Below are positions 4,848 through 20,000 of a DNA stretch of 20,000 nt, in pieces (within the stretch, counting starts at the first letter, position 1; every line of letters starts with the position of its first letter). The translations under genes and the position numbers were made by a program. The stretch comes from an uncultured virus (IMG/VR IMGVR_UViG_3300028630_000295) (Duplodnaviria; Heunggongvirae; Uroviricota; Caudoviricetes): IMG/VR virus record IMGVR_UViG_3300028630_000295; one strand, 5' to 3'. The notes under the pieces were generated by a model, which saw only the letters and a program-made list of their open reading frames with translations, searched no databases and was not told where the DNA came from.

Positions 4848-4855
4848 GGAAAATA

Positions 4856-6025
4856 ATGTTTAATGTATATATCTATAATGAAGGAGATGAACTTCCGAAA
4901 GATGATGTTTGTTATATTCTCACAAAAGACGGCATTCTTCTAAAAAAGAAGGTCGGATTGATGGAGAGTATTTCTAAGGTTGATAAAATTTCGATTCTTG
5001 GAGATTTAAAACCACATGCAAAACTCCACATTGAAAAGATACCTGGTCCTGTGTTTGCTAAGATTTATAGTTTCTTTAAGGAAGTATATAAAGAGTTTTA
5101 TTCGGAGTGTGTAGCTCTTTTATACTATAATCCAAAAACGAAGAAATATAAAACTTTCATTCCGAACCAGGAGGTTTCTGGAGCTAGTCTTGATTATGTT
5201 AAAGATAGAACATTCAAAGATCATGTGTTGATGTGTTCTATTCATAGTCATGCTAGCATGAGTGCTTTCCATTCAGGAACGGATAGTGATGATGAAAAGA
5301 GCTTTGATGGTCTTCATATAACTCTTGGGAAGATGAATCAAGATGTTATTGATATCTCAGCTTCTATTGTTGCAAATGGAACCAGATTTATGGTTGATCC
5401 TCTTGACTATGTTCATAATCTGGATCTTGTTGAATTCTCATATTATAATCCAAATCAGTTTAAACCAGCATTTGTGGTTGTTGATGGTGAAAAACAATAC
5501 ACTAAAGATGTAAAAACACATCTTGGTTATGTAATTAATGGTGTATCTGATAAGGATAAGGAATTTGATAAGAATTGGATGAGATTTGTCAAGAAGAAAA
5601 CATACTCATATACATATTCAAGATGGGTATGGGATAATGAGCAGAAAAAACTAATTGAAGTCAAAGAGGAGAGATCTGGTGGTGAAACAGTTGGATCTGT
5701 TCTGGAAGCTCAAAATCGTGCCCGTGGTGGTTATCCATATTATGGTGGTCATAGGGGACGAGAGGATTGGTGGACTGGTATAAACGAAAGACAAAGGTAT
5801 AGAAATGATGAACATACATCTCCAAGATATGAAAAATATAATCCATGTAAGGATTGTATTTTTAGAGATCATAAACTGAGACAAGATGAAGTTAGCAAAG
5901 CACTAGAACCAGTTGCTGATAACTATAAGAGTAAAACTCCTGATCCTACTTTTAAAGAAATGGTAAATACAGATCAAGAACTCATGGAACTTTATGATGA
6001 ATTTGGTCTGTATAGATACTGGTAA
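4856..6025 (+). CDS. JAB/MPN+ (JAMM) metallopeptidase, prokaryotic deubiquitinase-like (PRTRC protein A-like)
   Basis: SECVALLYY (catalytic Glu), P.QEVSGASLDY and SIHSHASMSAFHSGTDSDDE (HxH-x7-S-x2-D JAMM motif). ATG 4856 after GAGG preferred over GTG 4844. Confidence 0.9.
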   Translation: MFNVYIYNEGDELPKDDVCYILTKDGILLKKKVGLMESISKVDKISILGDLKPHAKLHIEKIPGPVFAKIYSFFKEVYKEFYSECVALLYYNPKTKKYKTFIPNQEVSGASLDYVKDRTFKDHVLMCSIHSHASMSAFHSGTDSDDEKSFDGLHITLGKMNQDVIDISASIVANGTRFMVDPLDYVHNLDLVEFSYYNPNQFKPAFVVVDGEKQYTKDVKTHLGYVINGVSDKDKEFDKNWMRFVKKKTYSYTYSRWVWDNEQKKLIEVKEERSGGETVGSVLEAQNRARGGYPYYGGHRGREDWWTGINERQRYRNDEHTSPRYEKYNPCKDCIFRDHKLRQDEVSKALEPVADNYKSKTPDPTFKEMVNTDQELMELYDEFGLYRYW

Positions 6026-6038
6026 AATGGAGGAATTA

Positions 6039-6722
6039 ATGGAAAGACTTGTAATTATTGGTCTTGGAGGTATTGGTTCAATTTTAAGTGATAAATTATC
6101 TAGATTTGTAAATTTCAAAAAAGATCAAGAAACTTGGATTACATTGATTGATGGTGATTATTTTGAGGAGAAGAATTTTGAAAGACAAGAATTCTTCAAC
6201 CTTGGAAATAAAGCATCAGTCAAGGCAGCGGAATTGAGTTCAAGGTATGAGAAGATTAAGTATGATAATGTTCCATACTTTGTTGATGAAAATCTTTTAC
6301 CAAGAGTGATGGGTGAGGGAGACACTGTTTTTCTCGCAGTTGATAATCATAAAACGAGAAAATTAGTCTCTGATTATGCTAAAAATTTAAAAGATATTAC
6401 TATTATCTCTGGTGGTAACGATCTTATTGATGGGAACGTGCAAATCTATGTACGAAAAGGAGGTGAAGATTTAACTCCCAGTCTTACTGATTACCACCCA
6501 GAAATTGAAAACCCAGCAGACAAATTACCAAATGAAATGAGTTGTGAAGAGTTACAAAACTCTGAACCCCAACTATTCTTTACAAATTTAGGGGTTGCTA
6601 CAATCATGTGTTGGTCCTATTACAATATTAAAAATAAAGACCTCACAAGTTCCGAAATTTATTTTGATATTAACAAAATGAGAGCACATTCTACTGCTAG
6701 AGAACCAAAAACTAAAAAGTAA
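6039..6722 (+). CDS. E1-like ThiF/MoeB-family adenylyltransferase (Ubl-activating enzyme)
   Basis: IIGLGGIG, LIDGD..EEKNFERQ, NKA, LAVDNHKTR and SCEE...QLFFTN with candidate catalytic Cys (codon 6543-6545). No CxxC zinc pairs. ATG 6039 follows GGAGG (6029-6033). Confidence 0.9.
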   Translation: MERLVIIGLGGIGSILSDKLSRFVNFKKDQETWITLIDGDYFEEKNFERQEFFNLGNKASVKAAELSSRYEKIKYDNVPYFVDENLLPRVMGEGDTVFLAVDNHKTRKLVSDYAKNLKDITIISGGNDLIDGNVQIYVRKGGEDLTPSLTDYHPEIENPADKLPNEMSCEELQNSEPQLFFTNLGVATIMCWSYYNIKNKDLTSSEIYFDINKMRAHSTAREPKTKK

Positions 6723-6732
6723 GGAGTTTGAA

Positions 6733-7182
6733 ATGAATAGAGCAGAACTAGAAGCAAAAACCGTAGATGAACTTCGTAGTATTTGTGTACGTTATGGTAT
6801 CGTTGGAATGAGCAAGAAGAGGAAGGACATCATTGTTGATGCTCTTCTAGCATATTATAAAAGTAGTGCAGGACCAGTTTCAAAGTCCGGTTCCCAGAAC
6901 CTCGATGAAATGAGGTCCGTTTTTCACAGTAAAGTTACGAATCCTGGTGCAGCAGCAGGAAACAAAACTTCTACCACAATCCTCGTATCCTGTGGTGCGG
7001 CGTATGGAAACTTTCCTGTGGTCGGGAAAACTGTGGGGTCCGTTGCCGAGTTTCTTCGGGAAGTCCTCAATGTTGACCGTATGTCACAAGGTGTCGTAAA
7101 CGGTAAGCAGGTTGAAGATTCTTACCGTCTGAAAGAAGGGGACAATCTTGAGTTCCTGAAACCTGCTGGCCGCAAAGGTTAA
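6733..7182 (+). CDS. Ubiquitin-like (beta-grasp) protein with N-terminal Rho-N/HeH-like helical domain, C-terminus ...PAGRKG
   Basis: N-terminal LEAKTVDELRSICVRYGIVGMSKKRKDIIVDALL (Rho-N-like). C-terminal GKTVGSVAEFLREVLNV...VVNGKQVEDSYRLKEGDNLEFLKPAGRKG (beta-grasp with free terminal Gly, GxKG end as in PRTRC protein C). Strong AAGGAG RBS. Confidence 0.88.
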   Translation: MNRAELEAKTVDELRSICVRYGIVGMSKKRKDIIVDALLAYYKSSAGPVSKSGSQNLDEMRSVFHSKVTNPGAAAGNKTSTTILVSCGAAYGNFPVVGKTVGSVAEFLREVLNVDRMSQGVVNGKQVEDSYRLKEGDNLEFLKPAGRKG

Positions 7183-7190
7183 AAAATGAA

Positions 7191-7223
7191 GCTCCCAGTC
7201 TTCATGGAAAGAGGACTGGGAGC
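7191..7223 (+). terminator. GC-rich stem-loop closing the Ubl operon (terminator or mRNA-stabilising hairpin)
   Basis: GCTCCCAGTC (7191-7200) is the perfect reverse complement of GACTGGGAGC (7214-7223), extendable by 3 pairs. It begins 8 nt after the Ubl stop. Only a weak T-tract follows. Confidence 0.65.
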
Positions 7224-7246
7224 CCATTTAATAAACTTATGGAGAA

Positions 7247-7738
7247 ATGATTATGGAAGATGGCAAGCAGATCAATCCTGAAAATCTATATCCCAAGTAT
7301 TATTATCAATCGGATGAAATCATTGGAAACGTGTATACAGCATGTATTCTAGTTGATAGATCTAACGGTGTAATTGTGTCAAGAGGTATAGCTGTAAGAT
7401 CTCTTCTTGACATGCATAAAAAAGCAACTGCCAGAAATATTGCTCATGGTAGAGCTATTAAAGCTATTGCCAATGTGAGTAGTTCTGATGAAATCAATGT
7501 TGATAGGCAGAGAGTTCCATCGTTTATTCTATTTAAGAAGAAAGATGGATTAACAGAAGAAGAAGCTCAGAAAATCAATGAGAGTTTCTTTATTCCAGAA
7601 GGATCCTCAAACATTTATGTTCCAAGGTTCTATCCACTTGAGGTAACTGCAAAAGAGTTTAAATTCAAATCAGAATTTATGCCTCAACCTACTGAGAAGG
7701 AAAAGATGATTGCTACAAAGTTACCTAAAGTAAAATAG
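7247..7738 (+). CDS. Phage protein, possibly Gp49/DUF1876-like dsRBD-fold
   Basis: TACILV...SRGIAVRSLLD.HKKATARNIAHGRAIKA resembles the G.A.....D.......IA..RA pattern of that family. GGAG upstream (start 7247 or 7253). Confidence 0.5.
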   Translation: MIMEDGKQINPENLYPKYYYQSDEIIGNVYTACILVDRSNGVIVSRGIAVRSLLDMHKKATARNIAHGRAIKAIANVSSSDEINVDRQRVPSFILFKKKDGLTEEEAQKINESFFIPEGSSNIYVPRFYPLEVTAKEFKFKSEFMPQPTEKEKMIATKLPKVK

Positions 7739-7743
7739 TATGA

Positions 7744-7857
7744 TTGGTGGGTGGGTGACCTGGGGAGGAACTTGATGCTAGATCCAAAAAAGGGTACAAT
7801 TTTGATCCTTTAAACCGACTAGTGTTCAAGGAGTAACCCACAGTAGCCCACCCCCAA
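7744..7857 (+). ncRNA. Unidentified structured RNA element (long interrupted hairpin), cis-leader or small RNA
   Basis: Nested complementarity: 7744-7756/7846-7857 (one bulge), TGGG 7761-64/CCCA 7837-40, CTTGA 7771-75/TCAAG 7826-30, TGCTAG 7776-81/CTAGTG 7819-24, AAAGGGT 7789-95/ATCCTTT 7805-11. Fills the only large intergenic gap and is far more GC-rich than its surroundings. Strand is assumed. Confidence 0.6.
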
Positions 7858-7874
7858 ACTTTTAAGGAGTTTGT

Positions 7875-8129
7875 ATGGCATATAACCAAGAAAAGGATAA
7901 ACTTTTAAAACTTTTTGAAATGGAATCCAATATTCCAGGAAACAGTCTTTTGGTTTCGATATTTTCATATGATAATGCAAAACCAAAGCTTCAAATTACA
8001 AGATCATATAAGAAAAAAGATGAAACATTAGGATATGCAGCTGCTGGAAGATTAACAATAGAAGAAGTAGAATTTCTGAAAAATAATATGGATGAAATTA
8101 TTTCAACAATGAAAGGTATAGGTAAGTGA
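7875..8129 (+). CDS. PC4/YdbC-like small ssDNA-binding protein or transcription cofactor
   Basis: LLVSIFSYDNAKPKLQITR...GRLTIEEVEFL matches the PC4-fold pattern (beta strands, then xLT.EE helix). TAAGGAG RBS. Confidence 0.6.
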   Translation: MAYNQEKDKLLKLFEMESNIPGNSLLVSIFSYDNAKPKLQITRSYKKKDETLGYAAAGRLTIEEVEFLKNNMDEIISTMKGIGK

Positions 8130-8181
8130 GATGCTTTCTCAACATTAGGGAACAAATAAATGTGGATTGGAGGGATGTGAT

Positions 8182-9066
8182 TTGTACGGTAGTATTTCCC
8201 TTATTGGTTTAGGATCACTTGGTAGTTTTTTAGCTAGAACCCTCGTAGATGCAAGTCGTCATTTGAGAGAACTTATCTTGATAGATTATGATATAGTATC
8301 AGAAGATAATTTAGAGAGAAGTTTATACGATATAAATGATATAGGAAAATTGAAAATAGATGCCCTATTTGATAAAATAAGAAATTATAAACCAAGTTTA
8401 TCAGTTCAAAAACTTGCGACTAGATTAATTTCTGGATCACCACTTCCAATATGCGACTTACATATTGACTGTAGAGATTTTCATTATAATTCAATTGAAA
8501 ATGTACCAATGATAAGAACTTATATTTCTTCTGGAAAACTAGTTGTAGATTGTAGGGATAATATTAAACACCAACGAAATATAGAAGGTTCTTACTCAAC
8601 GGTAGTTTTGAAACACCATCTTTTATATGCTTCAACAATTATAGCAAATTTGATTGACACAGGAAATATTAAAAAATTAATTGACAAAAAATTAGTTCAA
8701 ATTTTTGAACTAGATTACCTCGAAAAGAAAATAGAAGATAAACTCAATAGAGTAGAAAATATGCCAGATGTGATTTATGACTCAGAATTTGATAGTCAGA
8801 AATTATTGAACTTATTAGAATATTCTCAACCAATTATCTCTTCAAATAAAAACTCTCCTATTACAGTATATGTTGGTGGTCGAAATAGACCAACAGTTAA
8901 AGAAACAATTCCCCCAAATAGATTGTGTGATTTTAGTGACTTAATATCCTGTTTGTCACCATTAACACAATTGAGATTTTCTAGTAATTACTATATTGTG
9001 ATATTTAGTCCAATTACACCACATGGTCCTATCATTGAGTTAATTCCAGACGATGGTTCAGCGTAG
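8182..9066 (+). CDS. Second, divergent ThiF/E1-like adenylation-domain protein with unknown C-terminal domain
   Basis: ISLIGLGSLGS, LILIDYDIVSEDNLERSLY, DIGKLKIDAL, DLHIDCRD. TTG 8182 lies 7 nt after GGAGGG and is preferred over 8167. Confidence 0.8.
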   Translation: MYGSISLIGLGSLGSFLARTLVDASRHLRELILIDYDIVSEDNLERSLYDINDIGKLKIDALFDKIRNYKPSLSVQKLATRLISGSPLPICDLHIDCRDFHYNSIENVPMIRTYISSGKLVVDCRDNIKHQRNIEGSYSTVVLKHHLLYASTIIANLIDTGNIKKLIDKKLVQIFELDYLEKKIEDKLNRVENMPDVIYDSEFDSQKLLNLLEYSQPIISSNKNSPITVYVGGRNRPTVKETIPPNRLCDFSDLISCLSPLTQLRFSSNYYIVIFSPITPHGPIIELIPDDGSA

Positions 9067-9074
9067 GATTAATC

Positions 9075-9422
9075 ATGGAAAAAAAGATTTTAAATTTTAA
9101 AAAAATTATAGTTCCTACGAGGGTGGTTTATCAGAATTCTATTAGAATAATCACTCGAATTAATTTGGATTTTGTAATCAATGGATATTCTATTTATCTA
9201 GATGAAGAATCTAGATTAGAGAAAGTAATAGTCAACGGAAAACATCCGAATAGTAATCCAGATACAAATGAGTTCTGTATTCCGATTCCGTTTAAAAATA
9301 TGTTTAGAGTAACGAAAAGTTATAGGAAAAGGTTAGAAGGAATGATGGCAACTTTTAATATGAATGATTGTTATTTTTCTCCGTGGTATGCTTTCTCCTA
9401 TGATAAAGACTTTTATAACTAG
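9075..9422 (+). CDS. Hypothetical protein with HPN-x8-C motif, possible minimal E2/UBC-like protein
   Basis: KHPNSNPDTNEFCIP (His57, Cys68) followed by a predicted helix. Starts 8 nt after the second E1-like gene. The ORF is secure and the function is tentative. Confidence 0.45.
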   Translation: MEKKILNFKKIIVPTRVVYQNSIRIITRINLDFVINGYSIYLDEESRLEKVIVNGKHPNSNPDTNEFCIPIPFKNMFRVTKSYRKRLEGMMATFNMNDCYFSPWYAFSYDKDFYN

Positions 9423-9865: not shown

Positions 9866-12565
9866 ATGCCTTCATTGTTGGATCAAAACAAATTCGTTGA
9901 GGATTTGCCGGAAGTTTCTTCTGTATCAATTATGAGCAAAAGAAAGTTCCATCCAGAAGGACTTTTCTCTGAGCAGATTTTTGGACCTCTCAAAAATTAT
10001 ACATGCCAATGTGGAGTATATTATGGTTCTTCTAAATCAGGTGGGAAGTGCAAAACTTGCCAGGTTGATATAGTGAATAACAATGAGAGGAGAAAAAGGT
10101 TTGCTAAGATTAGACTTCCTATTCCTGTAGTTAATCCAATCTTTTATGATCTCATTGTTAGTATTGGTGGGAATAACTTAAAGGCTACGATTGACACATT
10201 GATGAAAAAAGACGATGTTAGTCTTTATAAGGATGGAAATGATTATGTATGCGTAGACGATAAATTAGTTCCTCCAAAAGTTAAAAAATGGGAAACATTA
10301 GAAGCAATCAATGAACTTATTACTGGAATTACAAAAGAAAATGTTAAAGGTGGGAATAAAAATTGGAAAATTATTCAAGATAATTTAGATAAACTATTTC
10401 TAAATTATGTTATTGTTCTCCCACCTGATTTGAGACCAGCAGCAAAAGGGATTGAAAAGAACAGTCAGGTAGTAGATAAAATTAATAGATATTATATGCA
10501 AATACTAACTAAAAAAGAAATAATGAAAGAAACTATTATTAATGTAACCAATAATAAACAATTATTTTATACTTATTTTAAGCAGTTACAAAAAGATGTA
10601 AACGAATTATATGAGCATATTATTGAAAAGCTATCTAAAAAAGAAGGCTTAATCAGGGGAAATATTCTTGGAAAGAGAATTGACTTTTCTGGTCGAGCAG
10701 TTATCATTCCAGATCCAACCCTATCTTTAGATGAATGTTGTTTACCATATATTATGGTTCTGGAATTGTTCAAGTTAAAAATCTCCAAAATTTTGATTGA
10801 GCTTGGAAAATTTAAACTTCTTAATGATGCTGTTGATTATATTGACAAGTGTATTGAATATAAAATTCCGGCTCTATACAAAATTGCAGAAGAAGCAATT
10901 TATGACGAAGTTTGTTTATTGAATAGACAACCATCTCTGCATAGATTGAGCATGGTTGGTTTCAAAATTAAGATGTCAGTGGATAATGTTATTAAAATTC
11001 ACCCATTGGTTTGCTCTGGATTTAACGCAGACTTCGATGGAGATCAGATGGCTGTTTATATTCCAGTATCTGAAGAAGCTAAAGAAGAACTCAGACAAAA
11101 ATTTCTATCAACAAAAAATCTTACAAATCCAGCAAACGAGAGTTTAACTACAACTCCAAGTCAGGATATTGTTCTTGGGATATATACATTGACATCTCAT
11201 AGATTTAAAGAATTAGAAGGTAAAGTAGAATATAAAGGAAAAGAAATTACAGAAGCACAAAAAATATTTAATGAAGCACTACCAGAATCTTATCCAATTA
11301 TTGATTATGTTGTTGGAAAAAAGGAATTGATTTCAATTCTAAATGATATAAAAGATAATTATTCAGAAGAAATAACAAAGACAGTTTTAGATGAAATTAA
11401 ATGGAGAGGGTTTAAATACTCGACTTTATTTGGTTCAACTCTATCTCTAGATGCTTGTAGAATTGAGAACTCTAAAAAAGTAAGGAACTCTCTGTATGAA
11501 GGAGATAATATTCTTACTCAGTTAGAAAAAGTTTCTAGTGACGAACTAGAAACTATCCTCAAAAATAACTTTAGTTATTCTTATCTTATAACATCTGGAG
11601 CAAGAGGTAGTTGGGAACAAGTAAGGCAGATCGTTATGACCAGAGGTTTTATTTCTAACTTCAGAGGTCAAATTTTAGCAACTCCTATTAAACACAGTCT
11701 CTTAGATGGTTTAACTCAAGAAGAGTTTTTCCTTTCAACTTATGGTTGTAGAAAAGGTCTCCTAGACGTTTCGTTGAATACTGGAGCATCAGGATATCTT
11801 TCAAGGAAATTGAATTTCACTTGTGCTAATCTTCAAATTCACGAATCTCTAGATGATTGTGGAACGAAGGATCTTCTTGAAGTTTATGTTAATGACAAGA
11901 AGAAAGCGAGAATGTTAGTCAATAGATGGTGTATGCTTCCCACTAAAAAATTGGTATTAATTACACAACAGAATTATGAAGCCTTAATTGGAAAAACAAT
12001 TATGATTAGAAGCCCAATCTTCTGTAAGAGTGAGCAAGTATGTCATAAATGTTATGGTGAGTTATTTAGATCCCTTCATAGTAGATTTGTTGGAATAATT
12101 GCTGCCCAATCTTTAGGGGAATGCAATACACAGTTGATTCTAAGAACTTTCCATACATCTGGTGTAGCAAAAGTTAATAAAGGTGAAGAAGAAATGAAGC
12201 AGATGGACATTGTTAGTGATTTAGATAGTGTCAGTAAGCTTCTACATTTACGAAAGAGTAAAGAGTATAAAGAATTAGTATCTGATTTATATAAAGTTTA
12301 TAACTCAAATAGAGATATCTATCATGTTCATTTTGAATGTGTAGTGTCTCAGATGATGTGGAAAGGAAACACCAAATGGAGACTTCTTGAACACAGAGAT
12401 AAAATTGTTCCTGAATATCACAGTGTTCAATCAGTTCCCAGTAAAGAGAGTTGGTTATTGGGTCTTGGATTCTCAAACCCGAAACGACACATTTTAAAGG
12501 GAATTGTTCATGGTGGTCTCTATAGTGGAATTATGGATAAAATACTTTGTGGAGAAAAGTTATGA
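9866..12565 (+). CDS. rpoC: DNA-directed RNA polymerase beta' subunit, compact and divergent bacterial type (899 aa)
   Basis: GLFSEQIFGP, CQCG...CKTC zinc site, VLPPDLRP, KEGLIRGNILGKRIDFSGRAVI, LLNRQPSLHR, catalytic NADFDGDQM (~11024-11050), SGARG, bridge helix RKGLLD...SGYLSRKL, DCGT, RSPIFC...CHKCYG, trigger loop GIIAAQSLGE..TQL.LRTFH. Confidence 0.97.
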   Translation: MPSLLDQNKFVEDLPEVSSVSIMSKRKFHPEGLFSEQIFGPLKNYTCQCGVYYGSSKSGGKCKTCQVDIVNNNERRKRFAKIRLPIPVVNPIFYDLIVSIGGNNLKATIDTLMKKDDVSLYKDGNDYVCVDDKLVPPKVKKWETLEAINELITGITKENVKGGNKNWKIIQDNLDKLFLNYVIVLPPDLRPAAKGIEKNSQVVDKINRYYMQILTKKEIMKETIINVTNNKQLFYTYFKQLQKDVNELYEHIIEKLSKKEGLIRGNILGKRIDFSGRAVIIPDPTLSLDECCLPYIMVLELFKLKISKILIELGKFKLLNDAVDYIDKCIEYKIPALYKIAEEAIYDEVCLLNRQPSLHRLSMVGFKIKMSVDNVIKIHPLVCSGFNADFDGDQMAVYIPVSEEAKEELRQKFLSTKNLTNPANESLTTTPSQDIVLGIYTLTSHRFKELEGKVEYKGKEITEAQKIFNEALPESYPIIDYVVGKKELISILNDIKDNYSEEITKTVLDEIKWRGFKYSTLFGSTLSLDACRIENSKKVRNSLYEGDNILTQLEKVSSDELETILKNNFSYSYLITSGARGSWEQVRQIVMTRGFISNFRGQILATPIKHSLLDGLTQEEFFLSTYGCRKGLLDVSLNTGASGYLSRKLNFTCANLQIHESLDDCGTKDLLEVYVNDKKKARMLVNRWCMLPTKKLVLITQQNYEALIGKTIMIRSPIFCKSEQVCHKCYGELFRSLHSRFVGIIAAQSLGECNTQLILRTFHTSGVAKVNKGEEEMKQMDIVSDLDSVSKLLHLRKSKEYKELVSDLYKVYNSNRDIYHVHFECVVSQMMWKGNTKWRLLEHRDKIVPEYHSVQSVPSKESWLLGLGFSNPKRHILKGIVHGGLYSGIMDKILCGEKL

Positions 12566-12801
12566 GGAAAAAAATACCACATAACGACATAAATTATATC
12601 AAGTATCAAGCTGACCAGTTAGAAAATACAGTAAAACAAAGGTCACATCAGAGAAGAGCTCTTATTAGATTTATAAAAGCTAATAGATCCCATCTTAGAT
12701 GGTGGGATAATTACATTTCAACAAGATGTGATACAACACTGGTAGAGAAGGCTAGAAGTGTAATAGCTTCAATGGAGGAAAAATCAAAAACTCCAAGCTA
12801 A
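12562..12801 (+). CDS. Hypothetical basic protein between the two RNAP subunit genes
   Basis: ATG 12562 overlaps the beta' stop (ATGA) with GGAG upstream. Fills the gap to the beta RBS. Confidence 0.55.
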   Translation: MRKKIPHNDINYIKYQADQLENTVKQRSHQRRALIRFIKANRSHLRWWDNYISTRCDTTLVEKARSVIASMEEKSKTPS

Positions 12802-12816
12802 AAAGGAGGATTTCTC

Positions 12817-15800
12817 TTGGAAATCGTAAATCCTAAGTTTAAAGTAAACAGAGAAAATAATATATTTCTCATAAGAAAAAAAGAGTATCAGGAATTAGAA
12901 TCTCAAATAAGGGAGATTCTAAAACCAGCAGAAGAACTCGGATTTGCAGTTATGGAATTCGGGATTAAAGATTCAAGGACTTCTCCCGGAGAATTAGAGA
13001 AGTCCTTGAAAAAGAATTTGGTGATTAAACTACAAAAGGGAGCAGCTGAAATTGATTTGAGTATGTATATTCCAAGGTTGATTGATGATAATTATATCGT
13101 AATCAGCGGAAGGAAAAAGATACCCCAATTTCAGTTGTTTGATATTCCAATAGTTACGAGAGGAGAAACTATCAAGCTACGAACCAATGTAGCAAACATG
13201 ATTATTTCCAAGGAAAAAGATTTTCCATATATTCATCTCACAATCCTTGGAAAGAAAGTTCCCCTCTCAATATTAATGTTGGCATATTATGGTTTTGATA
13301 CGTTAAACAAAATGTATAGTTTAACATCAATGCCACCCATTGTCTTAGATAATAAATCAAGATTGATTGATTATCTAATGTTTGATTTGAAAGACTGGGC
13401 AGATGGGTATGATGGAGAGAAACAAGAGGATTATGTAAAAGAAATTGGAAGTAAATTTTCTAGTTATGATGCAAGGACCAAAGGAGAGGATTTAATTTAT
13501 TGTCTTGACTTGATTCCAAAAGTAGATATTATGTCTAAAAAGTTATTCAAGACACAAAATCTCATGGAAGAAATAGTCTATGCAATTAGTACAGATGGAA
13601 TTGATGATACTGATTATCAAAATAAGAGAATCAGATGTTTTGAGTATCTTATTTTGGGAAGGGTTGCTAAAGCTATATTTGATTTGTGTATGTCTAATCG
13701 AACAGCAAAGCAACCGAAGTTCAACATTAATTCCAATGCAATTCTCTCTGAATGTAATGTTTCAGACATCGTCCAGTTCGACTTTTCAATTAACCCAATT
13801 GATGAGTTGACAAAGTTGTCTAGAGCAAGTCTTTTAGGACCAGGAGGATTCAATAGAGAGAATGTTCCTGAATATCTAAGAGATGTTTGCCCTAGTATGT
13901 TTGGGAGAATATGCTCAGTTGATACTCCAGATAGAGATAACTGTGGTATTCTTCAGAATCTTCTTCCAAATGTTGATATGGATGATAATCTGAAATTTAC
14001 AGATCATACTTTAGATACAACTCCAATTTCAATCCCAGTTGCCATGGTTCCATTCTTAGAGCATGATGACCAGACAAGATTACAGATGTCATCATCTCAA
14101 ATGAGACAGGCAATCATGTTAACCAACTTCGATCAACCAATGATCCAGTCCGGGTGTGAAGGACTTTATACTGATTATACTCAATTTGTGAAAAGAGCGA
14201 AAAGAGATGGAGAAGTAATTTTCTTTGACCATCATTATCTAATTGTCGTCTATGACAATAAAGAGTTAGATATATTCAATGTTTCCCTTAGAAAAATCTA
14301 TGTGGATAACATGGATATGATGAAGGTCTATGTAAAACCTGGTGATAGATTTAAAGCTGGTGAGATTCTCGCAGAAAGCAATTATTGCACAGATGGGAAA
14401 ATTAATATTGGTAAAAATCTATTAACTGGAGTTATGATCTATTATGGAAAGAACTATGAAGATGGAATAGTTCTCTCTGATAGAGTAGTCAAAGAAAAAG
14501 TATTTACTTCTGTTCACTATACAGATCTTTCTTTTGTAGTTCCTCCTGATAAGGTTCTTCTGAGTTTAGCAAGTGATAAATATAAACCTCTTCCAGAGGT
14601 TAATTTATCAAAGTTAGAAAGGATTAATACTGCTGAATCCTATGCAGTTATGAAGGGAGTTCCGGAGGGTCCAATCGACTTTTGTTCAATCTTTGAAGAA
14701 CCAATTAAACTCACTGCGAAGCGTCCCATTTTGGTTACAGATGTAAATATCTATGCAAATAGATGGCATACTGGAGTGCCAGAATGGAACTCTTTTATTG
14801 AGAATAAAATTGAAGAACAGCAAAAGAGAGAGAAGAAACTTCAAGATGTAATAACAAAGAATTGTCCAAAGGAATTGGCAACACAATTAATCAAATTACA
14901 TGGACTAGATAAGTTCTCTAGTACAGGTAAATATAAGATTAAGGGTGAAGAAGTCAATGGTGTATATGTAGAGTTATATGGCATGTATGCTAGAGATATC
15001 CAACCTGGTGACAAAATTGCAAATAGGCATGGAAATAAAGGGGTTATTACTGAGATCATTCCCCATGAAAGTATGCCACAACTAGCAGATGGTCGTCATG
15101 TTGATATCTGTATCAATCCTCTCAGTATCATATCCAGAATGAATGTTGGTCAGTTATTTGAATTACATTTATCCAAGTCTCTTGAAGACTTAAAAACGAA
15201 ATTATTTAAGATGATAAAGGACGGGAAGGGTCAGAGAACTCTTCGAAAATATTTATTAGATTATATTGATATTATAGATAGAACAGAAGATAAATGGTAT
15301 TCAAAACAGTTTAAAGAACAACTGGGTGAGATAACAGAGGAGTTTGTAAATAGTCTGTGTTTGATTCAAGCACCATTTGAATCTGTCACGGACGATATGA
15401 TAAAGAACGCGATGGAATTTACCAACACCCCGTACCGGCAACCAGTCTACGATCCGATTTCAAAGACAACTTTGCAGGAAGAGATTGCAGTTGGATATCT
15501 ATACTTTTTCAGGATGGTTCATATAGCTGAAAGTAGATTAGCTGCAAGAGGAATTGGATCATATGCAAGAAGGACTCTGCAACCATTGGGAGGAAGAAAA
15601 AATCGTGGAGGTCAGAGATGTGGGGAAATGGAGACTGCATGTTTGATTGGTCACGATGCTCCAGTGAATTTATTTGAGTTCTTGACAACGAAGAGCGATT
15701 GCATTGACTTGAAAAATCAATACATTCGCCAGACGATGGAAACAGACTTCACGAAAGAACCTGAGGAACTTTCCATCGTGCCGGAGAGTGTTAAATTGTT

Positions 15801-15837
15801 GAACGCGTATATTACTGTAATCGGAATCAAACGTTAA
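12817..15837 (+). CDS. rpoB: DNA-directed RNA polymerase beta subunit, compact and divergent bacterial type (1006 aa)
   Basis: LGPGG, RDV...GRIC..DTP, VPFLEHDD..R..M...MRQA, GKNLL, NYEDGIVLS, GDKIANRHGNKGV, DICINPL.I.SRMNVGQLFE, QPLGGR..GGQRCGEME, VPESVKLL. TTG start after AGGAGG. Confidence 0.97.
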   Translation: MEIVNPKFKVNRENNIFLIRKKEYQELESQIREILKPAEELGFAVMEFGIKDSRTSPGELEKSLKKNLVIKLQKGAAEIDLSMYIPRLIDDNYIVISGRKKIPQFQLFDIPIVTRGETIKLRTNVANMIISKEKDFPYIHLTILGKKVPLSILMLAYYGFDTLNKMYSLTSMPPIVLDNKSRLIDYLMFDLKDWADGYDGEKQEDYVKEIGSKFSSYDARTKGEDLIYCLDLIPKVDIMSKKLFKTQNLMEEIVYAISTDGIDDTDYQNKRIRCFEYLILGRVAKAIFDLCMSNRTAKQPKFNINSNAILSECNVSDIVQFDFSINPIDELTKLSRASLLGPGGFNRENVPEYLRDVCPSMFGRICSVDTPDRDNCGILQNLLPNVDMDDNLKFTDHTLDTTPISIPVAMVPFLEHDDQTRLQMSSSQMRQAIMLTNFDQPMIQSGCEGLYTDYTQFVKRAKRDGEVIFFDHHYLIVVYDNKELDIFNVSLRKIYVDNMDMMKVYVKPGDRFKAGEILAESNYCTDGKINIGKNLLTGVMIYYGKNYEDGIVLSDRVVKEKVFTSVHYTDLSFVVPPDKVLLSLASDKYKPLPEVNLSKLERINTAESYAVMKGVPEGPIDFCSIFEEPIKLTAKRPILVTDVNIYANRWHTGVPEWNSFIENKIEEQQKREKKLQDVITKNCPKELATQLIKLHGLDKFSSTGKYKIKGEEVNGVYVELYGMYARDIQPGDKIANRHGNKGVITEIIPHESMPQLADGRHVDICINPLSIISRMNVGQLFELHLSKSLEDLKTKLFKMIKDGKGQRTLRKYLLDYIDIIDRTEDKWYSKQFKEQLGEITEEFVNSLCLIQAPFESVTDDMIKNAMEFTNTPYRQPVYDPISKTTLQEEIAVGYLYFFRMVHIAESRLAARGIGSYARRTLQPLGGRKNRGGQRCGEMETACLIGHDAPVNLFEFLTTKSDCIDLKNQYIRQTMETDFTKEPEELSIVPESVKLLNAYITVIGIKR

Positions 15838-15893
15838 TAAAAAGGGGGTAGATGAAATAGTCTACCCCCTCAATAGGAGAGAAGAATTAGATG
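15628..15893 (+). repeat. Direct repeat copy 1: last 69 codons of rpoB, hairpin, RBS and start codon
   Basis: Colinear without gaps with 18367-18576 over 210 nt (57/69 aa identical by hand count), followed by the same AGGGGGTAGA/TCTACCCCCT-CAA hairpin, AGGAGA and TAGATG. Confidence 0.95.
15843..15870. terminator. Stem-loop AGGGGGTAGA-N8-TCTACCCCCT after rpoB
   Basis: Perfect 10-bp inverted repeat, preceded by an A-run (T-tract on the minus strand) with no T-tract on the plus strand. Confidence 0.7.
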
Positions 15894-18341
15894 GCAAACA
15901 AAAAATTGAATAATGAGTTATTGAAAAGTTTGTCTATTGCAAAAAGTGAAAAAGATGTAGAAAATGCATATAGACATATGATGAGTCATTATTTTCCGGC
16001 ATCTACTACTTCTCCAAACAAAGTTGATGGATTTACAGAATCAGGAAAAATTAAGTTATTAATGGAGTTTAAATATAAATCTAATCTTAAAGACAAGTTA
16101 ACTAAGGCAGAGATTTTAGTTCAATTAATTTATTACTTAAAGCGTTTGGAGAAAAGTGGAGTTGCAGCAAATGTTATATTTTCTGGTGATATAGATGAAT
16201 GTTTCTGTATGAGTACAGGACCATTATATAAATACTTATCTAAAAATTTAGATTGGTCTATTGCTCCATCTAGTGCTTCATCTAAAAATCCAGAACTTAT
16301 ATCGGAAATAGTAAATGATAAAGAAATAGCACCATTTATATATGACATAAATAAGAATATTAATTCAGATCAAATAGCAGAAAAGATAAAATTTATCTCA
16401 GAGGGAAAATCATTTTCAATTGGTATTACAAAACATAATATAGTTCCAATCTTTAAATATTTTCAAGATCATGTAGTAACAGATAAGTTTTTATCTGAAA
16501 AAGATGAAATTAGAAAAATATCTAGAGCAGCTGATTTATTTATTTCTTGTTTAACTGATTCAGAAAATACCTTCTTGCATCCAAATAAACAGAATATTTT
16601 AAGATGTAGAGGGGAATCAATTAAGGTTAATGCAAACTTATATATCTCCTTCTTTAGTCATTTCAAGCAGGATTATACAGTTGAAGAATTGAGAGATTTA
16701 ACATCATGTAAAGATAGAATTATAGAAGAAATATATAGGAGAAGAACTGGTGCATTTTTTACTCCTACAATTTGGGTTGATGAAGCACATAAAATGATGG
16801 CAGAATCTCTTGGACCAAATTGGTATGACGAGTATGTAGTTTGGGATTGTGCAGCAGGAACAGCACAATTAACTAGAGATTATAATTTTAAAGAATTGTA
16901 TATCAGCACGCTTGAAAAAGGGGATATAGATATTATTAGAGATATGGAATATAATCGAGGAGCAACAATTTTTCAATACGACTTTTTAAGTGAAGTTGGG
17001 ATTGAAAAAGTTCCTGTTTCTTTAAGAAAATTATTTGAAGAAAAGAAGAAGATTTTATTTTTAATTAATCCTCCATATGGGAAAGCAGCAGGAAAAGGGG
17101 AGATTTATAAAAGTACAGAAAAAGGTAGTAGCAATAATATAGTTAATGATGTTATGAAATCTGAAAATTATGGAAATGCATCACCACATTTATATTTTCA
17201 GTTTATTTTTAAAATAATGAAATTAATAGAATATTATAAAAATGATGTTATAATATGTACTTTTGCACCTCCTGTTTTTATGACTGGACCATCATTTAAA
17301 AAAGCAAGAGAGAAATTTTATAATATTTTTTCATTTGAAAATGGTTTTATTTTTCAAGCATCTGAATTTTCAAACGTTAATGGAAGATGGGGAATAAGTT
17401 TTACAGTATGGAAACCAGGAAAAAATAAAAAGGAAATAGTAGTTTCATGCAGAAAAATAGAAGATTTTGAAGTTAAAGAAATAGGAAAGAAGAACTTATA
17501 TAGTACAGATAATGAAGAAGCATGTAATACATGGGTAAGAAGAGAAATTAATGGACTTAAAACTTCAGACGAACCAAAATTGTCATCAGCAATAAAGGTT
17601 GTTGAAAATGAACAAAATTCTAGAAAATTGTGTAATAGTATTGGTTCTATGTATAGTGTAGCAAACAATGTAGATAGTAATATGCAATCTGTAGCTTTAT
17701 TCTCTTCGTCATATTCTAATTCACAAAATGCTTTTCCCATAGTTCCAGAAAATTTTTATAAAGCTATAGCATTACTTGCAGCTAGAACTATAGAATCTAA
17801 TTGGATTAACTGGACAGATGAATATATAAAACCATCAGATGAAATTTTAAATTCGGATAAATATAAACAGTGGAATAATGATGCTATTATTCTTTCTATT
17901 CCTACAGAAGTATCTTCTCTTAGACAAATTCTTTACAAAAAACAAAAATGGAATATCTTCAACCATTTCTTCTTTATGTCAAATAAAGAAATGATGGAAC
18001 TAGCAAATAAATATAAATTTCCTGAGATGTATGAAGATGCTAGAAAATTTAATGAAGACAGATACGTTTATAAATTATTAGAATCAGTTAATCTTTCTCC
18101 AGATGCAAAACAAGTTCTAGAATATGCTAGAGAAATGATTAGAAAATCAATTGAATTAAGGAAAATTTGGCATGAAGAAAATCCAGAATATCATCTAGAT
18201 GCTTGGGATGCTGGATATGCACAACATAGAGAACTATGGAAAAAACATTTTAAGAAAGAATTTGATGTATTTAAAGAATTATATAAATCGTTTGGAGATA
18301 GGATGCGAGAAGGAGTTTATAAGTTTGGATTCCTAAAATAA
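15891..18341 (+). CDS. Fused restriction-modification-like protein (Type IIG/IIC architecture): N-terminal PD-(D/E)XK nuclease, gamma-class N6-adenine methyltransferase, C-terminal specificity region
   Basis: SEKDVE...KVDGF...LLMEFK nuclease motif; RRRTGAFFTP (motif X); VVWDCAAGTAQL (motif I, variant); FLINPPY (motif IV); ASEF..V (motif VIII). Confidence 0.85.
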   Translation: MANKKLNNELLKSLSIAKSEKDVENAYRHMMSHYFPASTTSPNKVDGFTESGKIKLLMEFKYKSNLKDKLTKAEILVQLIYYLKRLEKSGVAANVIFSGDIDECFCMSTGPLYKYLSKNLDWSIAPSSASSKNPELISEIVNDKEIAPFIYDINKNINSDQIAEKIKFISEGKSFSIGITKHNIVPIFKYFQDHVVTDKFLSEKDEIRKISRAADLFISCLTDSENTFLHPNKQNILRCRGESIKVNANLYISFFSHFKQDYTVEELRDLTSCKDRIIEEIYRRRTGAFFTPTIWVDEAHKMMAESLGPNWYDEYVVWDCAAGTAQLTRDYNFKELYISTLEKGDIDIIRDMEYNRGATIFQYDFLSEVGIEKVPVSLRKLFEEKKKILFLINPPYGKAAGKGEIYKSTEKGSSNNIVNDVMKSENYGNASPHLYFQFIFKIMKLIEYYKNDVIICTFAPPVFMTGPSFKKAREKFYNIFSFENGFIFQASEFSNVNGRWGISFTVWKPGKNKKEIVVSCRKIEDFEVKEIGKKNLYSTDNEEACNTWVRREINGLKTSDEPKLSSAIKVVENEQNSRKLCNSIGSMYSVANNVDSNMQSVALFSSSYSNSQNAFPIVPENFYKAIALLAARTIESNWINWTDEYIKPSDEILNSDKYKQWNNDAIILSIPTEVSSLRQILYKKQKWNIFNHFFFMSNKEMMELANKYKFPEMYEDARKFNEDRYVYKLLESVNLSPDAKQVLEYAREMIRKSIELRKIWHEENPEYHLDAWDAGYAQHRELWKKHFKKEFDVFKELYKSFGDRMREGVYKFGFLK

Positions 18342-18366
18342 ATACAGAAAAGGAGAATTACGAACA

Positions 18367-18576
18367 ATGGAAAATGCATGCATCATCGCCCATGATGGAA
18401 AAGTTAATCTTAGTGAATTCTTGACAACTAAGAGTGATTGTATTGATTTGAAAAATCAGTATATTAGAAAGATGATGGAAACTGATTTCACGAAAGAACC
18501 TGAAGAAATTTCAGCGGTTCCAGAATCAGTAAAGTTGTTGAACTCATATTTAACCGTAATTGGAATTAAGAGATGA
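18367..18576 (+). CDS. Stand-alone duplicate of the RNAP beta C-terminal 69 aa (displaced gene end or expressed mini-protein)
   Basis: MENACIIAHD...TVIGIKR versus METACLIGHD...TVIGIKR in rpoB. Intact frame, begins at the Met of the GEME motif, AAGGAG 11 nt upstream. Expression is unproven. Confidence 0.8.
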   Translation: MENACIIAHDGKVNLSEFLTTKSDCIDLKNQYIRKMMETDFTKEPEEISAVPESVKLLNSYLTVIGIKR

Positions 18577-18588
18577 GAATGTAACTAA

Positions 18589-18614
18589 AGGGGGTAGAGA
18601 TGGGTCTACCCCCT
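18589..18614. terminator. Stem-loop AGGGGGTAGA-N6-TCTACCCCCT, second copy
   Basis: Stem identical to 15843-15870 with a different loop (GATGGG). Confidence 0.7.
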
Positions 18615-18634
18615 CAAAGAAAGGAGATGTGTAG

Positions 18635-20000
18635 ATGTTTGAATTACAAACTAAATCATTAAATTTAGCTGATTGTTTAGATATATTAATTGAGTTATAT
18701 AGATCAGGAAAACGAGAATTTATTGATCTTATTTATATTGATCCTCCGTTCAATAGTGATAAAAATTATAATATTCCCTTTGAAGGAGGAGAATTATCAG
18801 AAAAAGCATTTGTTGATACATGGTCAAGAGTAGCTTATCATGACCAACTAGATATGATTTCTAAAATATCACCAGATTTATATAAGTTTCTTGTATCTTT
18901 AGAGAAGACGAGTATTAAAAGATCATATATCACCTACTTGACAGTTATGGGAATTAGAGTTTTCTTTATGAGAGAAATGTTAAAACCAACAGGAACATTC
19001 TACTATCATTGTGATCCTACTGCAAGTCATTATATTAAAATGATACTGGATCAGATTTTTGGAATGGATAATTTTAGAAATGAAATTGTTTGGTGTTATA
19101 CTGGACCATCTAATATACAAAAAAATTTTCCAAGAAAACATGATGTAATTTTAAGATACAGTAAAACAAATATTTTCACTTTTAACTTTAATTCAGTTAG
19201 AATTCCATATAAAGGATTAGCAGCACAGGGACCAAGTAGAAGATGGCATGATGATGAAGAAGAACGAATAAAAGAATCCTTGGAAAAAGGAAAAATAGTT
19301 GAAGATTATTGGACAGATATTACATTAGCTATAAGATCAACAATAGAAAATTTGGGATATCCAACTCAAAAACCAGAGAAACTTTTAGAACGAATTATTT
19401 TAGCTTCTTCTAATCCTGGAGATCTGGTTGCAGACTTCTATCTGGGTGGTGGAACTACAATTGCTGTAGCTGAGAAACTAGATAGGCAATGGATTGGTGT
19501 AGATATTAATCCAAGAGCAATTGAGATTTCTGAACAAAGAATAAAGGATCTTGGAAAACAACTAAAAAAAGATTTTATAGTGAGTGGTATTCCAAAATCT
19601 TCTAAAGAGTTGAGAAAATTAATAGAAGATAATGTATATGGTAAAGATAAAAATAGTAAATTTGCTTTAGAAGATATTGTATGTAAATATTATTTAAAGA
19701 ATGTAGTAGGAAATGAGAAAAAAGTTGGAGATGACTCAATTGATGGAAGATTCACTTTTGATTTTAAAAATGAGAAACATTCAGGAATTGTTCAAGTTAC
19801 TACTAGTGGAAATAAAACACATCTAAAAAATTCTTGTGCAGTTATGGATTTAGAAGGACATTCAATGCTAGTATATGTTACATTTGAAGATAAAATAACT
19901 GATCCATTAATTGATCTGGCTAAAAGATATAAGAAAATTGGTGGGGTGGATAGAGTTCAATTATTAAGTCTAGAAGACTTGATTGATAAGGGAAAACAAT
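18635..20000 (+). CDS. Beta-class N6-adenine/N4-cytosine DNA methyltransferase with C-terminal Mrr-like domain, 3'-truncated by the window (absent from the ORF track)
   Basis: Hand translation from ATG 18635 (AAGGAG RBS): IDLIYIDPPFNS, LKPTGTFYYHCD..ASHYIK..LD.IFG..NFRNEIVWCY, GYPTQKPEKLLERII.ASSNPGDLVADFYLGGGTT, WIGVDI, then GDDSIDGRF...GIVQVT. No stop seen before 20000. Confidence 0.92.
   Translation, partial: MFELQTKSLNLADCLDILIELYRSGKREFIDLIYIDPPFNSDKNYNIPFEGGELSEKAFVDTWSRVAYHDQLDMISKISPDLYKFLVSLEKTSIKRSYITYLTVMGIRVFFMREMLKPTGTFYYHCDPTASHYIKMILDQIFGMDNFRNEIVWCYTGPSNIQKNFPRKHDVILRYSKTNIFTFNFNSVRIPYKGLAAQGPSRRWHDDEEERIKESLEKGKIVEDYWTDITLAIRSTIENLGYPTQKPEKLLERIILASSNPGDLVADFYLGGGTTIAVAEKLDRQWIGVDINPRAIEISEQRIKDLGKQLKKDFIVSGIPKSSKELRKLIEDNVYGKDKNSKFALEDIVCKYYLKNVVGNEKKVGDDSIDGRFTFDFKNEKHSGIVQVTTSGNKTHLKNSCAVMDLEGHSMLVYVTFEDKITDPLIDLAKRYKKIGGVDRVQLLSLEDLIDKGKQ

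Follow-up and report, generated by a model that had tools for sequence, protein, structure and literature searches.

A compact, unsplit beta'/beta polymerase gene pair of the mReC phage lineage on an uncultured viral contig

Introduction

The described system closest to the locus studied here is that of the multimeric RNA polymerase (RNAP)-encoding Caudovirales (mReC), a group defined by Weinheimer & Aylward in 2020 (PMC7481178). In that study the mReC clade is monophyletic, with an ultrafast bootstrap of 100 under several long-branch corrections. Where two beta'/beta pairs lie on one contig, they are labelled 'a' and 'b' in its Supplementary Dataset 2; a keyword search of its main text found no mention of two sets, gene order, sigma or alpha. 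One viral genome with a further beta gene fragment is mentioned by Hwang et al. 2023 (PMC10159854). Here, we analyse a 20,000-nucleotide (nt) stretch of the uncultured virus IMGVR_UViG_3300028630_000295 (the whole of it hereafter called the window), in which positions 9866-15837 encode a compact, unsplit beta' followed by a compact, unsplit beta.

Other multisubunit RNAPs resemble this pair in some respects and differ in others. The phiKZ/AR9-type enzymes, described in Iyer et al. 2021, are also phage encoded, come as two paralogous sets (two sets are likewise seen in eight of nine long relatives of the window) and have no alpha, omega or sigma genes beside them. However, their subunits are divided among four or five polypeptides and have diverged much further, whereas the subunits of the window and of 80 relatives are unsplit; the phages that encode them also lack the T4-type capsid. 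Bacterial RpoC and RpoB, as seen in the structures from E. coli, Streptomyces and Thermus, share with the window's proteins the fold family and the catalytic, Zn-binding, bridge-helix and trigger-loop elements. Yet the identity is only 29-34%, the gene order is reversed, the rplKAJL/rpsL context of E. coli is missing, and no alpha, omega or sigma gene accompanies the pair in five long records of relatives. Among cultured phages, Yersinia phage vB_Yru_GN1/YerA41 has unsplit subunits, with beta' (1090 amino acids, aa) directly ahead of beta (925 aa) in GN1, and Rhizobium phage RHph_TM30 has an unsplit beta' that is not followed by a beta. Both are only about 27-28% identical to the window's protein and lie outside its clade, on branches of 2.6 and 1.55.

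The lineage was published in 2020 (PMC7481178), so the pair is no new kind of system, but the enzyme is biochemically uncharacterised. Our literature search, whose coverage excluded subscription journals, found no biochemical or structural study of an mReC enzyme. Within the same coverage, the available parts of a 2025 paper on the lineage, a 2026 review of jumbo phages and Iyer et al. 2021 do not treat the anatomy of the enzyme, its two sets, its partners or its promoters.

Results

The gene pair is a member of the mReC lineage

The beta' gene (9866-12565, + strand, ATG start) encodes 899 aa and the beta gene (12817-15837, + strand, TTG start) 1006 aa, with a small open reading frame (ORF) of 84 aa between them (12547-12801, + strand, TTG start). 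An earlier, sequence-only reading had described exactly this arrangement, and both the ORFs and Pfam bear it out. In beta', Rpb1 domains 2, 5 and 3 score above cut-off (8.4e-35, 6.7e-25 and 1.1e-07) and domains 1 and 4 below it; in beta, Rpb2 domains 6, 3 and 7 are found (1.9e-47, 8e-11 and 3.8e-10). The translations contain NADFDGDQMAV, GECNTQLILRTFHTSG, PFLEHDDQTRLQMSSSQMRQ and NRHGNKGV. In PMC7481178, mReC are defined by beta and beta' homologues on one viral contig that can be aligned to cellular subunits of the COG0085/COG0086 type; with both genes in the window and their Rpb1/Rpb2 domains above cut-off, this definition applies to the pair, which corresponds to the short 'b'-type set of that paper (beta of 999-1017 aa and beta' of 902-915 aa in its table, encoded by adjacent genes).

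The proteins are of bacterial type. The best matches in PDB are bacterial for beta' (8e-101) and for beta (7e-82), and beta matches bacterial and plastid-sized chains at 1e-60 to 1e-82 vs 1e-19 to 1e-27 for archaeal and eukaryotic ones. PHROG families of split phiKZ/AR9-type subunits match the window's proteins at 1e-20 to 1e-40, and beta is matched at only 1e-19 by the 665-aa chain of PDB 7s00, presumably the AR9 enzyme.

Relatives are numerous in metagenomes and distant in phage records. A nucleotide search of phage records gave no match to the window, and a single-protein scan of viral contigs gave no confirmed relative. In GenBank, 130 phage records were matched by beta' and 71 by beta, all below 60% identity and at best 25-31% among the matches listed. 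Several hits in the phage collection (H1, H14, H15, H18, H19, H22 and others), filed as Enterococcus, Staphylococcus, Listeria or Salmonella 'phages', look in the matches like ordinary full-length bacterial rpoB/rpoC; these records seem to be host DNA, and one is marked UNVERIFIED_ORG. In IMG/VR, 151 relatives were recovered by an alignment-based scan; the 80 loci fetched from among them encode beta' proteins 57-83% identical to that of the window. A metagenomic protein collection holds a very large beta' family, whose 120 best matches are 60-92% identical and lie on contigs of up to 304 kb. The closest database protein is therein 92% identical to the window's beta', and the closest IMG/VR locus 83%. 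Lengths are constant, 118 of the 120 best homologues having 885-923 aa. The two longer ones (P0052 and P0122, with 1322 and 1056 aa) have the intein family PF14890 in the precomputed domain list.

Three of the fetched loci tie the window to the published lineage. L009 (277,131 bp), L005 (105,615 bp) and L061 (72,147 bp) have the same metagenome identifiers and the exact lengths of mReC contigs in Supplementary Datasets 1 and 2 of PMC7481178, and their beta' proteins are 62-65% identical to the window's. To place the latter, we built a beta' tree of 52 sequences (quick IQ-TREE run, LG+G4, with the Shimodaira-Hasegawa-like approximate likelihood ratio test as sole support, unrooted, and made up of bacterial and phage sequences, without archaeal, eukaryotic or giant-virus ones). 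The window falls in a clade of all 17 short-set sequences, including L005, L009 and L061, with a support of 100. Across a branch with a support of 100, the 29 bacteria, patescibacterial beta' included, form one group. A scan of prokaryotic genomes, one per species (185,579 species), gave 599 relatives of beta', the best 80 of which reach only 29-34% identity and represent ordinary rpoC genes from many bacterial phyla. Given the placement in the tree, the low identity of the best cellular matches and the relatives listed as mReC, the gene pair belongs to the published mReC lineage and is not cellular. The phage itself is distinct from the contigs of PMC7481178: it is a different phage of the same family.

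The sequence-only reading had proposed a separate viral capture and minimisation of a bacterial RNAP. Much of this stands, since the pair is viral, of bacterial type, unsplit, smaller than any bacterial counterpart aligned and outside the sampled cellular clades; there is neither nesting on short branches within a cellular clade nor an rRNA or ribosomal-protein operon nearby. It is however no new or separate event, the lineage being known, and an unrooted tree does not separate capture from an ancient lineage. One version of the idea is a recent capture from a present-day bacterial host, with rapid shrinkage and divergence of the genes thereafter; the depth of the branch would then be a rate artefact. 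The closeness to bacterial-type subunits in PDB and in genomes would fit, and accelerated evolution is named in PMC7481178 as an alternative which that paper leaves open. Yet no phylum stands out as a donor: the best cellular matches, at 29-34% identity, come from Actinomycetota, Patescibacteria, Spirochaetota, Bacteroidota and others, and all 29 bacteria group together. Fixed signatures, constant lengths and identities of 57-92% among many members point to long purifying selection, and the published monophyly holds under long-branch corrections. We consider a recent capture quite unlikely.

A compact catalytic core with conserved signatures

We mapped the two proteins by alignment with E. coli RpoC/RpoB and with small bacterial chains, and assessed conservation over 81 sequences of the family. 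All catalytic motifs are kept, in agreement with the initial reading, and their residues map onto those of E. coli. In beta', D389/D391/D393 align with D460/462/464, and the Zn sites C47/49/62/65 and C665/720/726/729 align with C70/72/85/88 and C814/888/895/898. In beta, R421, E548, D549, K733, K741, R774 and H902 align with R678, E813, D814, K1065, K1073, R1106 and H1237. These beta residues, as well as the Asp triad, both Zn sites and the trigger-loop R and H of beta', are retained in 80-81 of the 81 sequences. Lengths vary little (beta' 882-931 aa; median of beta 1001 aa) and reading frames are intact in 80/80 loci. The enzyme is probably active, judging from these residues.

This conservation bears on the idea that the short set is a relic, i.e., a decaying duplicate of the long set found in relatives (see below), or a decoy or scaffold without catalysis. 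The second set could carry the function in such relatives, and several bacterial domains are indeed missing. Against this, catalytic and Zn residues are kept almost without exception, no frame is broken, and one long record (G004, 72% complete) showed the short beta only. We regard such a role as very improbable.

The altered sites noted from the sequence at normally near-invariant positions are largely traits of the family. Three fixed changes relative to E. coli lie in beta' (T931->V/I, M932->L and G938->S) and six in beta (N677->T, A679->L, L680->Q, N684->S, M685->Q and Q686->M), each shared by 80-81 of 81 sequences. An exception is 'CN' in GECNTQ: its first position is R53/C12/T10/K5 and its second G44/N21/S12/A3 across the 81 sequences, so this part of the claim does not describe the family. 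The rifampicin pocket is also changed, with D516->F in 81/81 sequences and H526->K in 67/81. We take D516 and H526 to be main sites of rifampicin resistance, and because of these two replacements the enzyme is probably insensitive to the drug.

Compactness results from many separate gaps. The window's beta' lacks the segments equivalent to E. coli beta' 20-33, 201-223, 310-326, 524-548, 671-687, 704-722, 956-1126, 1149-1225, 1264-1285 and 1358-1407; most of these gaps hold even against a bacterial beta' of 1142 aa, and the alignment is well anchored on either side of each. They presumably correspond to the rudder (310-326), the tips of the rim helices (671-722), SI3 (956-1126), the jaw (1149-1225) and the omega-binding C-terminal tail. 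In beta, 226-346 (presumably SI1), 354-376, 578-619, 632-653 and parts of 969-1010 are missing, and the first 320 residues share only 53 of 266 aligned positions with E. coli. Compared with the smallest bacterial chains aligned, beta' is about 240 aa shorter and beta about 180 aa shorter. An AlphaFold2 model of beta' from a 16-sequence alignment was poor (mean predicted local distance difference test score of 57.8, predicted template modelling score of 0.34).

Gene order is fixed and the junction is variable

The beta gene lies directly downstream of beta', on the same strand, in 80/80 loci, with a spacer of 3-1023 nt. The same order is found in the long paralogous set and in the cultured Yersinia phage vB_Yru_GN1. 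Compact size, beta'-then-beta order (80/80 loci) and altered motifs (80-81 of 81 sequences) are thus fixed traits of the family.

The junction itself is a variable slot. The spacer is shorter than 120 nt in 24 of the 80 loci, and the other 56 hold either larger inserted ORFs or members of unrelated small-ORF families (of 30, 10 and 5 members). These families sit in different subclades, marking the junction as a hot spot of insertion; L006 and L036 have cysteine-rich ORFs of 287 and 343 aa there, which resemble homing endonucleases by reading only. The 84-aa ORF of the window belongs to the family of 10, which is confined to the window's own subclade, and has no match in Pfam, PHROGs, NCBIfam or PADLOC. 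It is, on this distribution, a real but accessory gene and not a fixed subunit.

Relatives encode a second, longer polymerase set

We scanned nine long relatives with the Rpb2_6 family and found two beta genes in eight of them, mostly 33-49 kb apart. One has about 1000-1070 aa. In seven records the other has about 1361-1375 aa; in G002 it has 1072 aa. Only the short beta was seen in the 224-kb record that is 72% complete. In the complete relative (G001), a long beta' (1002 aa) lies upstream of a long beta (1364 aa), with a cupin ORF in between. This corresponds to the long 'a'-type set of mReC (beta' of about 1000 aa, beta of about 1365 aa).

The two sets are paralogues. They share the beta'-then-beta order, the N-terminal signature FHPEGLFSEQIFGP and a series of deletions relative to all bacteria aligned (E. 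coli beta' 20-33, 310-326, 671-687, about 703-722, 1264-1285 and the C-terminal tail). They differ in that the long proteins of G001 are only 28% (beta') and 26% (beta) identical to those of the window. The long beta' is without Zn finger 1, and at a point where about 75 residues are missing from the short set it retains an insert; the long beta is extended at its N-terminus by several hundred residues, which match nothing in Pfam. The window's pair is the short one of the two paralogous sets carried by its relatives.

No alpha, omega or sigma, and a T4-like virus context

The sequence-only reading had called for a search for polymerase partners, which we made in the relatives. Sigma70_r2 (PF04542), RNA_pol_A_bac (PF01000) and Rpb6/omega (PF01192) were found in 0/5 long relatives; the same models detected their targets in 10/14, 14/14 and 14/14 control genomes, respectively. 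Among the 382 ORFs of the complete 277-kb relative, compared with Pfam at E<=1e-5, there was no sigma, alpha or omega, and the only RNAP families were those of the four genes of the two sets. A PHROG scan of 150 of its ORFs without Pfam match (E<=1e-8) placed none in the transcription category.

Relatives show a virus context. The Gp23 capsid is present in four of the five long records, and the complete relative encodes, beside its T4-type capsid, Portal_T4, a Peptidase_S77 prohead protease, Terminase_6N, sheath, gp25 and baseplate genes. The capsid (PF07068) and terminase (PF03237) families named in PMC7481178 are thus found in relatives of the window. One relative has direct terminal repeats and a CheckV completeness estimate of 100%. 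There are no Caudovirales hallmark genes inside the 20-kb window. G001 is a T4-like jumbo phage with many radical-SAM, sulfotransferase and glycosyltransferase genes, and its sequence at about 168.7-169.8 kb (L190:18701-19804) strongly matches PF25216, the actin-like Volactin family (1.8e-70).

The complete relative also encodes Amidase_2, GH108 with PG_binding_3, OmpA, three PilZ, a pilin N-methylation motif and heptosyltransferase-type domains, which point to a Gram-negative bacterial host. Three beta' homologues (P0051, P0119 and P0120), one of them on a 255-kb contig, carry NCBI names of Thorarchaeota or Heimdallarchaeaceae metagenome-assembled genomes (MAGs). Asgard archaeal hosts, suggested by these names, are rejected for the relative examined, because it carries genes related to peptidoglycan and lipopolysaccharide; for the same reason the names are probably binning errors of phage contigs.

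Could the pair nevertheless belong to a streamlined bacterium, e.g., a symbiont or a candidate-phyla organism with a reduced rpoC-rpoB pair? The archaeal MAG-bin names on some homologues, the low GC content (26-38%) and the lack of a virion gene in 20 kb might suggest a cellular genome. But the 80 related loci come from a collection of viral contigs, relatives carry T4-type virion genes, no relative above 34% identity was found in the genomes of 185,579 species, and patescibacterial beta' groups with the other bacteria. The window also lacks any sign of a ribosomal context, as had been noted from the start: it has 0 tRNA, no ribosomal protein by Pfam and 0 Rfam families, and therefore no rRNA. 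A cellular origin is hardly credible.

Two recurrent promoter-like motifs

In G001, the gaps upstream of ORFs are enriched in two motifs, motif A, RGAACAAAWWWAAAAW, and motif B, CTATATATATTAAT. Motif A precedes 25 of 168 ORFs in G001, at 16-40 nt from the start codon in 19 cases. Among these ORFs are those of DNA polymerase B and of large virion genes, as well as the ThiF gene at the head of the short polymerase block and a ligase gene at the head of the long one. It occurs in all five long relatives tested, with 8-40 copies vs 0-16 for a reversed control. Motif B, with its TATATT/TATTAAT-like hexamers, is present in the same five genomes (G001-G005; 7-16 copies per genome vs 0 reversed), almost wholly on one strand in four of them and ahead of small-ORF clusters, and resembles a second class of promoter. 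Taken together, the placement and recurrence of motifs A and B suggest that they may be promoters of the phage enzymes.

In the window, the sole + strand copy of motif A (GGAACAAAT, 8149-8157) lies in a 37-nt gap ahead of a ThiF-family (E1-like) gene (8167-9066, + strand; Pfam ThiF 3.7e-13; homologue in 77/80 related loci), and is a candidate phage promoter element. The place is equivalent to that in the 277-kb relative. This ThiF gene (ThiF-2) is the first of a densely packed row of genes, followed by a 115-aa ORF, two small ORFs, beta' and beta; judging from the spacing, ThiF-2 could be co-transcribed with the polymerase genes. RGAACAAA occurs within -90..+15 of the homologous ThiF start in 16/74 loci vs 1.7% of random 105-nt windows, and at ten other genes a similar placement is seen in 0-4 loci. 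Many of the 58 loci without motif A at this place have there a GGGGG..CCCCCAA hairpin and a Shine-Dalgarno sequence. A hairpin of the same kind (GGGGGTAGA..TCTACCCCC, 15842-15871) lies directly 3' of beta in the window; it is G/C-rich, has no T-run on the + strand, and may act as a terminator or mark an RNA end. A scan of the window for intrinsic terminators showed no enrichment (7 vs 7.4 +/- 3.4). Motif B has one match in the window, with 2 mismatches and inside an ORF, which is no more than chance.

These results bear on an alternative in which the enzyme is a hybrid: the phage beta'/beta core would assemble on the host alpha (and omega) and use the host sigma, replacing only the large subunits. 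Since no phage alpha, omega or sigma was found, platform and promoter factor must then come from elsewhere. Moreover, the short beta' has retained Zn finger 1 together with the long helices ahead of the catalytic domain, which we take to be a sigma-binding region in bacteria, and the hexamers of motif B could be read in the same sense. Yet matches to sigma70-type promoters are not enriched in the window (111 vs 99.9 +/- 9.4), the C-terminal tail of beta', presumably the part that binds omega, is missing, and the N-terminal third of beta has diverged strongly from that of E. coli. Split phage RNAPs, for their part, are active without alpha and omega. On balance, we find a hybrid enzyme unlikely.

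Read evidence and an inserted cassette

The arrangement of the locus is supported by independent reads. Fourteen DNA runs (activated sludge, wastewater and a biogas fermenter), six of which are flagged as possible sources, hold at least 89% of the sampled words of 11000-19000. Contigs longer than 160 kb are present in the sludge and wastewater runs with the window. In run X8, one contig spans 9491-13521 with 0 differences and another 15606-18870 with 6, and in run X13 a contig spans 15844-18404 with 0 differences; neither run is flagged as a source. Because these contigs bridge the junctions, the beta'/ORF/beta arrangement and the cassette described below are not artefacts of one assembly. Contigs of an RNA-library run (X16) match 10073-10276, 12121-12368 and 13875-14195, in beta' and beta, with 0-1 differences, and are weak evidence of transcription.

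The window differs from the published mReC and from its 80 relatives by a cassette (15838-18634) inserted after beta. It holds an ORF of 816 aa (15891-18341, + strand), which lies between two diverged beta 3' ends, each followed by the same G/C hairpin. The ORF has an NPPY motif and is methyltransferase-like by reading only; it has no match in Pfam, PHROGs, NCBIfam or PADLOC, is missing from 80/80 related loci, and has a GC content of 27.7% vs 34.9% for beta. The second beta end (18367-18576, + strand) duplicates the last 69 codons of beta, has its own Shine-Dalgarno and ATG, matches Rpb2_7 (5.3e-07), and is followed by the second hairpin copy (about 18590-18613). It shares 57/69 residues with beta and differs at 55/207 nt, and each of the two copies is 59/69 identical to the nearest relative. 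Because the codon differences are mostly synonymous (29 vs 12 nonsynonymous), the second copy would come from another functional beta allele, and the cassette looks like the product of recombination with that of a related phage.

Neighbouring genes

The long ORFs of the window are all on the + strand. The neighbours of the polymerase genes recognised by Pfam are JAB, two ThiF genes, a ThiS/Rho_N-like ORF, WYL_2 and DNA methylase genes. The stretch 2259-9422, immediately 5' of the polymerase genes, holds a conserved ubiquitin-like module made up of an 862-aa protein of unknown function, JAB (with a weak PRTRC_A match), ThiF/E1, a ThiS-like ORF with Rho_N, and a second ThiF/E1 (matching E1-E2 models of PADLOC at about 1e-12). 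Homologues of its parts are found in 62-77 of the 80 loci, and the order is identical in the 277-kb relative. A link of the 862-aa protein to Prok-E2_D was considered and rejected: the lead in the ESM Atlas was weak (0.83, below the trusted level), and only its own viral cluster reached 0.93.

Two further genes flank the region, a DUF559/MTES_1575-type endonuclease-like ORF with a C2H2 finger (483-1247) and an N6/N4 DNA methylase (18635-19999; 2.3e-47). Each is missing from 80/80 related loci, and they are probably mobile or strain-specific additions. The 143-nt intergenic region at 7736-7878 can form a long hairpin closed by G-rich and C-rich arms (-48.2 kcal/mol, z = -2.86, with 0/200 shuffles folding equally well), which has no match in Rfam.

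Discussion

Our results indicate that the beta' and beta of this window are very probably the catalytic core of a phage-encoded, bacterial-type multisubunit RNAP, from an uncultured T4-like jumbo phage of the mReC clade that is found in activated sludge and wastewater. Such an enzyme would transcribe phage genes from phage-specific promoters, for which motif A and/or motif B are candidates, and would work without alpha, omega or sigma homologues of its own, like the split phiKZ/AR9 enzymes. The short and long sets may divide the infection programme between them. Beyond the main text of PMC7481178, we observed the second set in eight of nine long relatives, the absence of alpha, omega and sigma homologues from a complete relative, and two recurrent motifs.

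A broader proposal is that mReC phages, with their T4-type virions, achieve largely host-independent transcription with two unsplit paralogous polymerases that lack alpha, omega and sigma and read two lineage-wide promoter classes. Motif A would then serve replication, polymerase and large virion genes, and motif B the one-directional clusters of small genes. This would make the system an independent, unsplit counterpart of the virion/non-virion strategy of phiKZ, in which one set is packaged and serves early genes and the other is made after infection, with the smallest known natural two-subunit core of bacterial type. We offer this proposal tentatively, and it may well prove wrong.

Several observations weigh against these interpretations. 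The tree is quick and unrooted, and its short and long clades drew a program warning as long branches meeting each other. The window has neither a virion gene nor a second polymerase set, so that the virus context and the two sets are drawn from relatives that are 57-83% identical in beta'. The absence of sigma, alpha and omega holds at Pfam thresholds, with the PHROG scan covering 150/382 ORFs, and a divergent factor could escape. The map of missing domains comes from sequence alignment, with presumed domain names and a poor structure model. Motif A is found twice in the window, no more than chance, and is missing ahead of ThiF-2 in 58/74 loci; in the complete relative it precedes both polymerase blocks, which misfits a simple scheme where one set makes the other. 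Finally, the contigs of the RNA library may stem from DNA and are no proof of transcription.

Compactness, reversed order and altered motifs are stable, selected traits of the very abundant family to which this gene pair belongs, which comprises thousands of metagenomic proteins and is common in wastewater and sludge. As a natural minimal unsplit core, which appears to do without rudder, jaw, rim-helix tips, omega-binding tail and alpha platform, it would be a useful object for asking what a multisubunit RNAP needs. The arrangement in two sets would be a second, independent case of large phages freeing themselves from host transcription.

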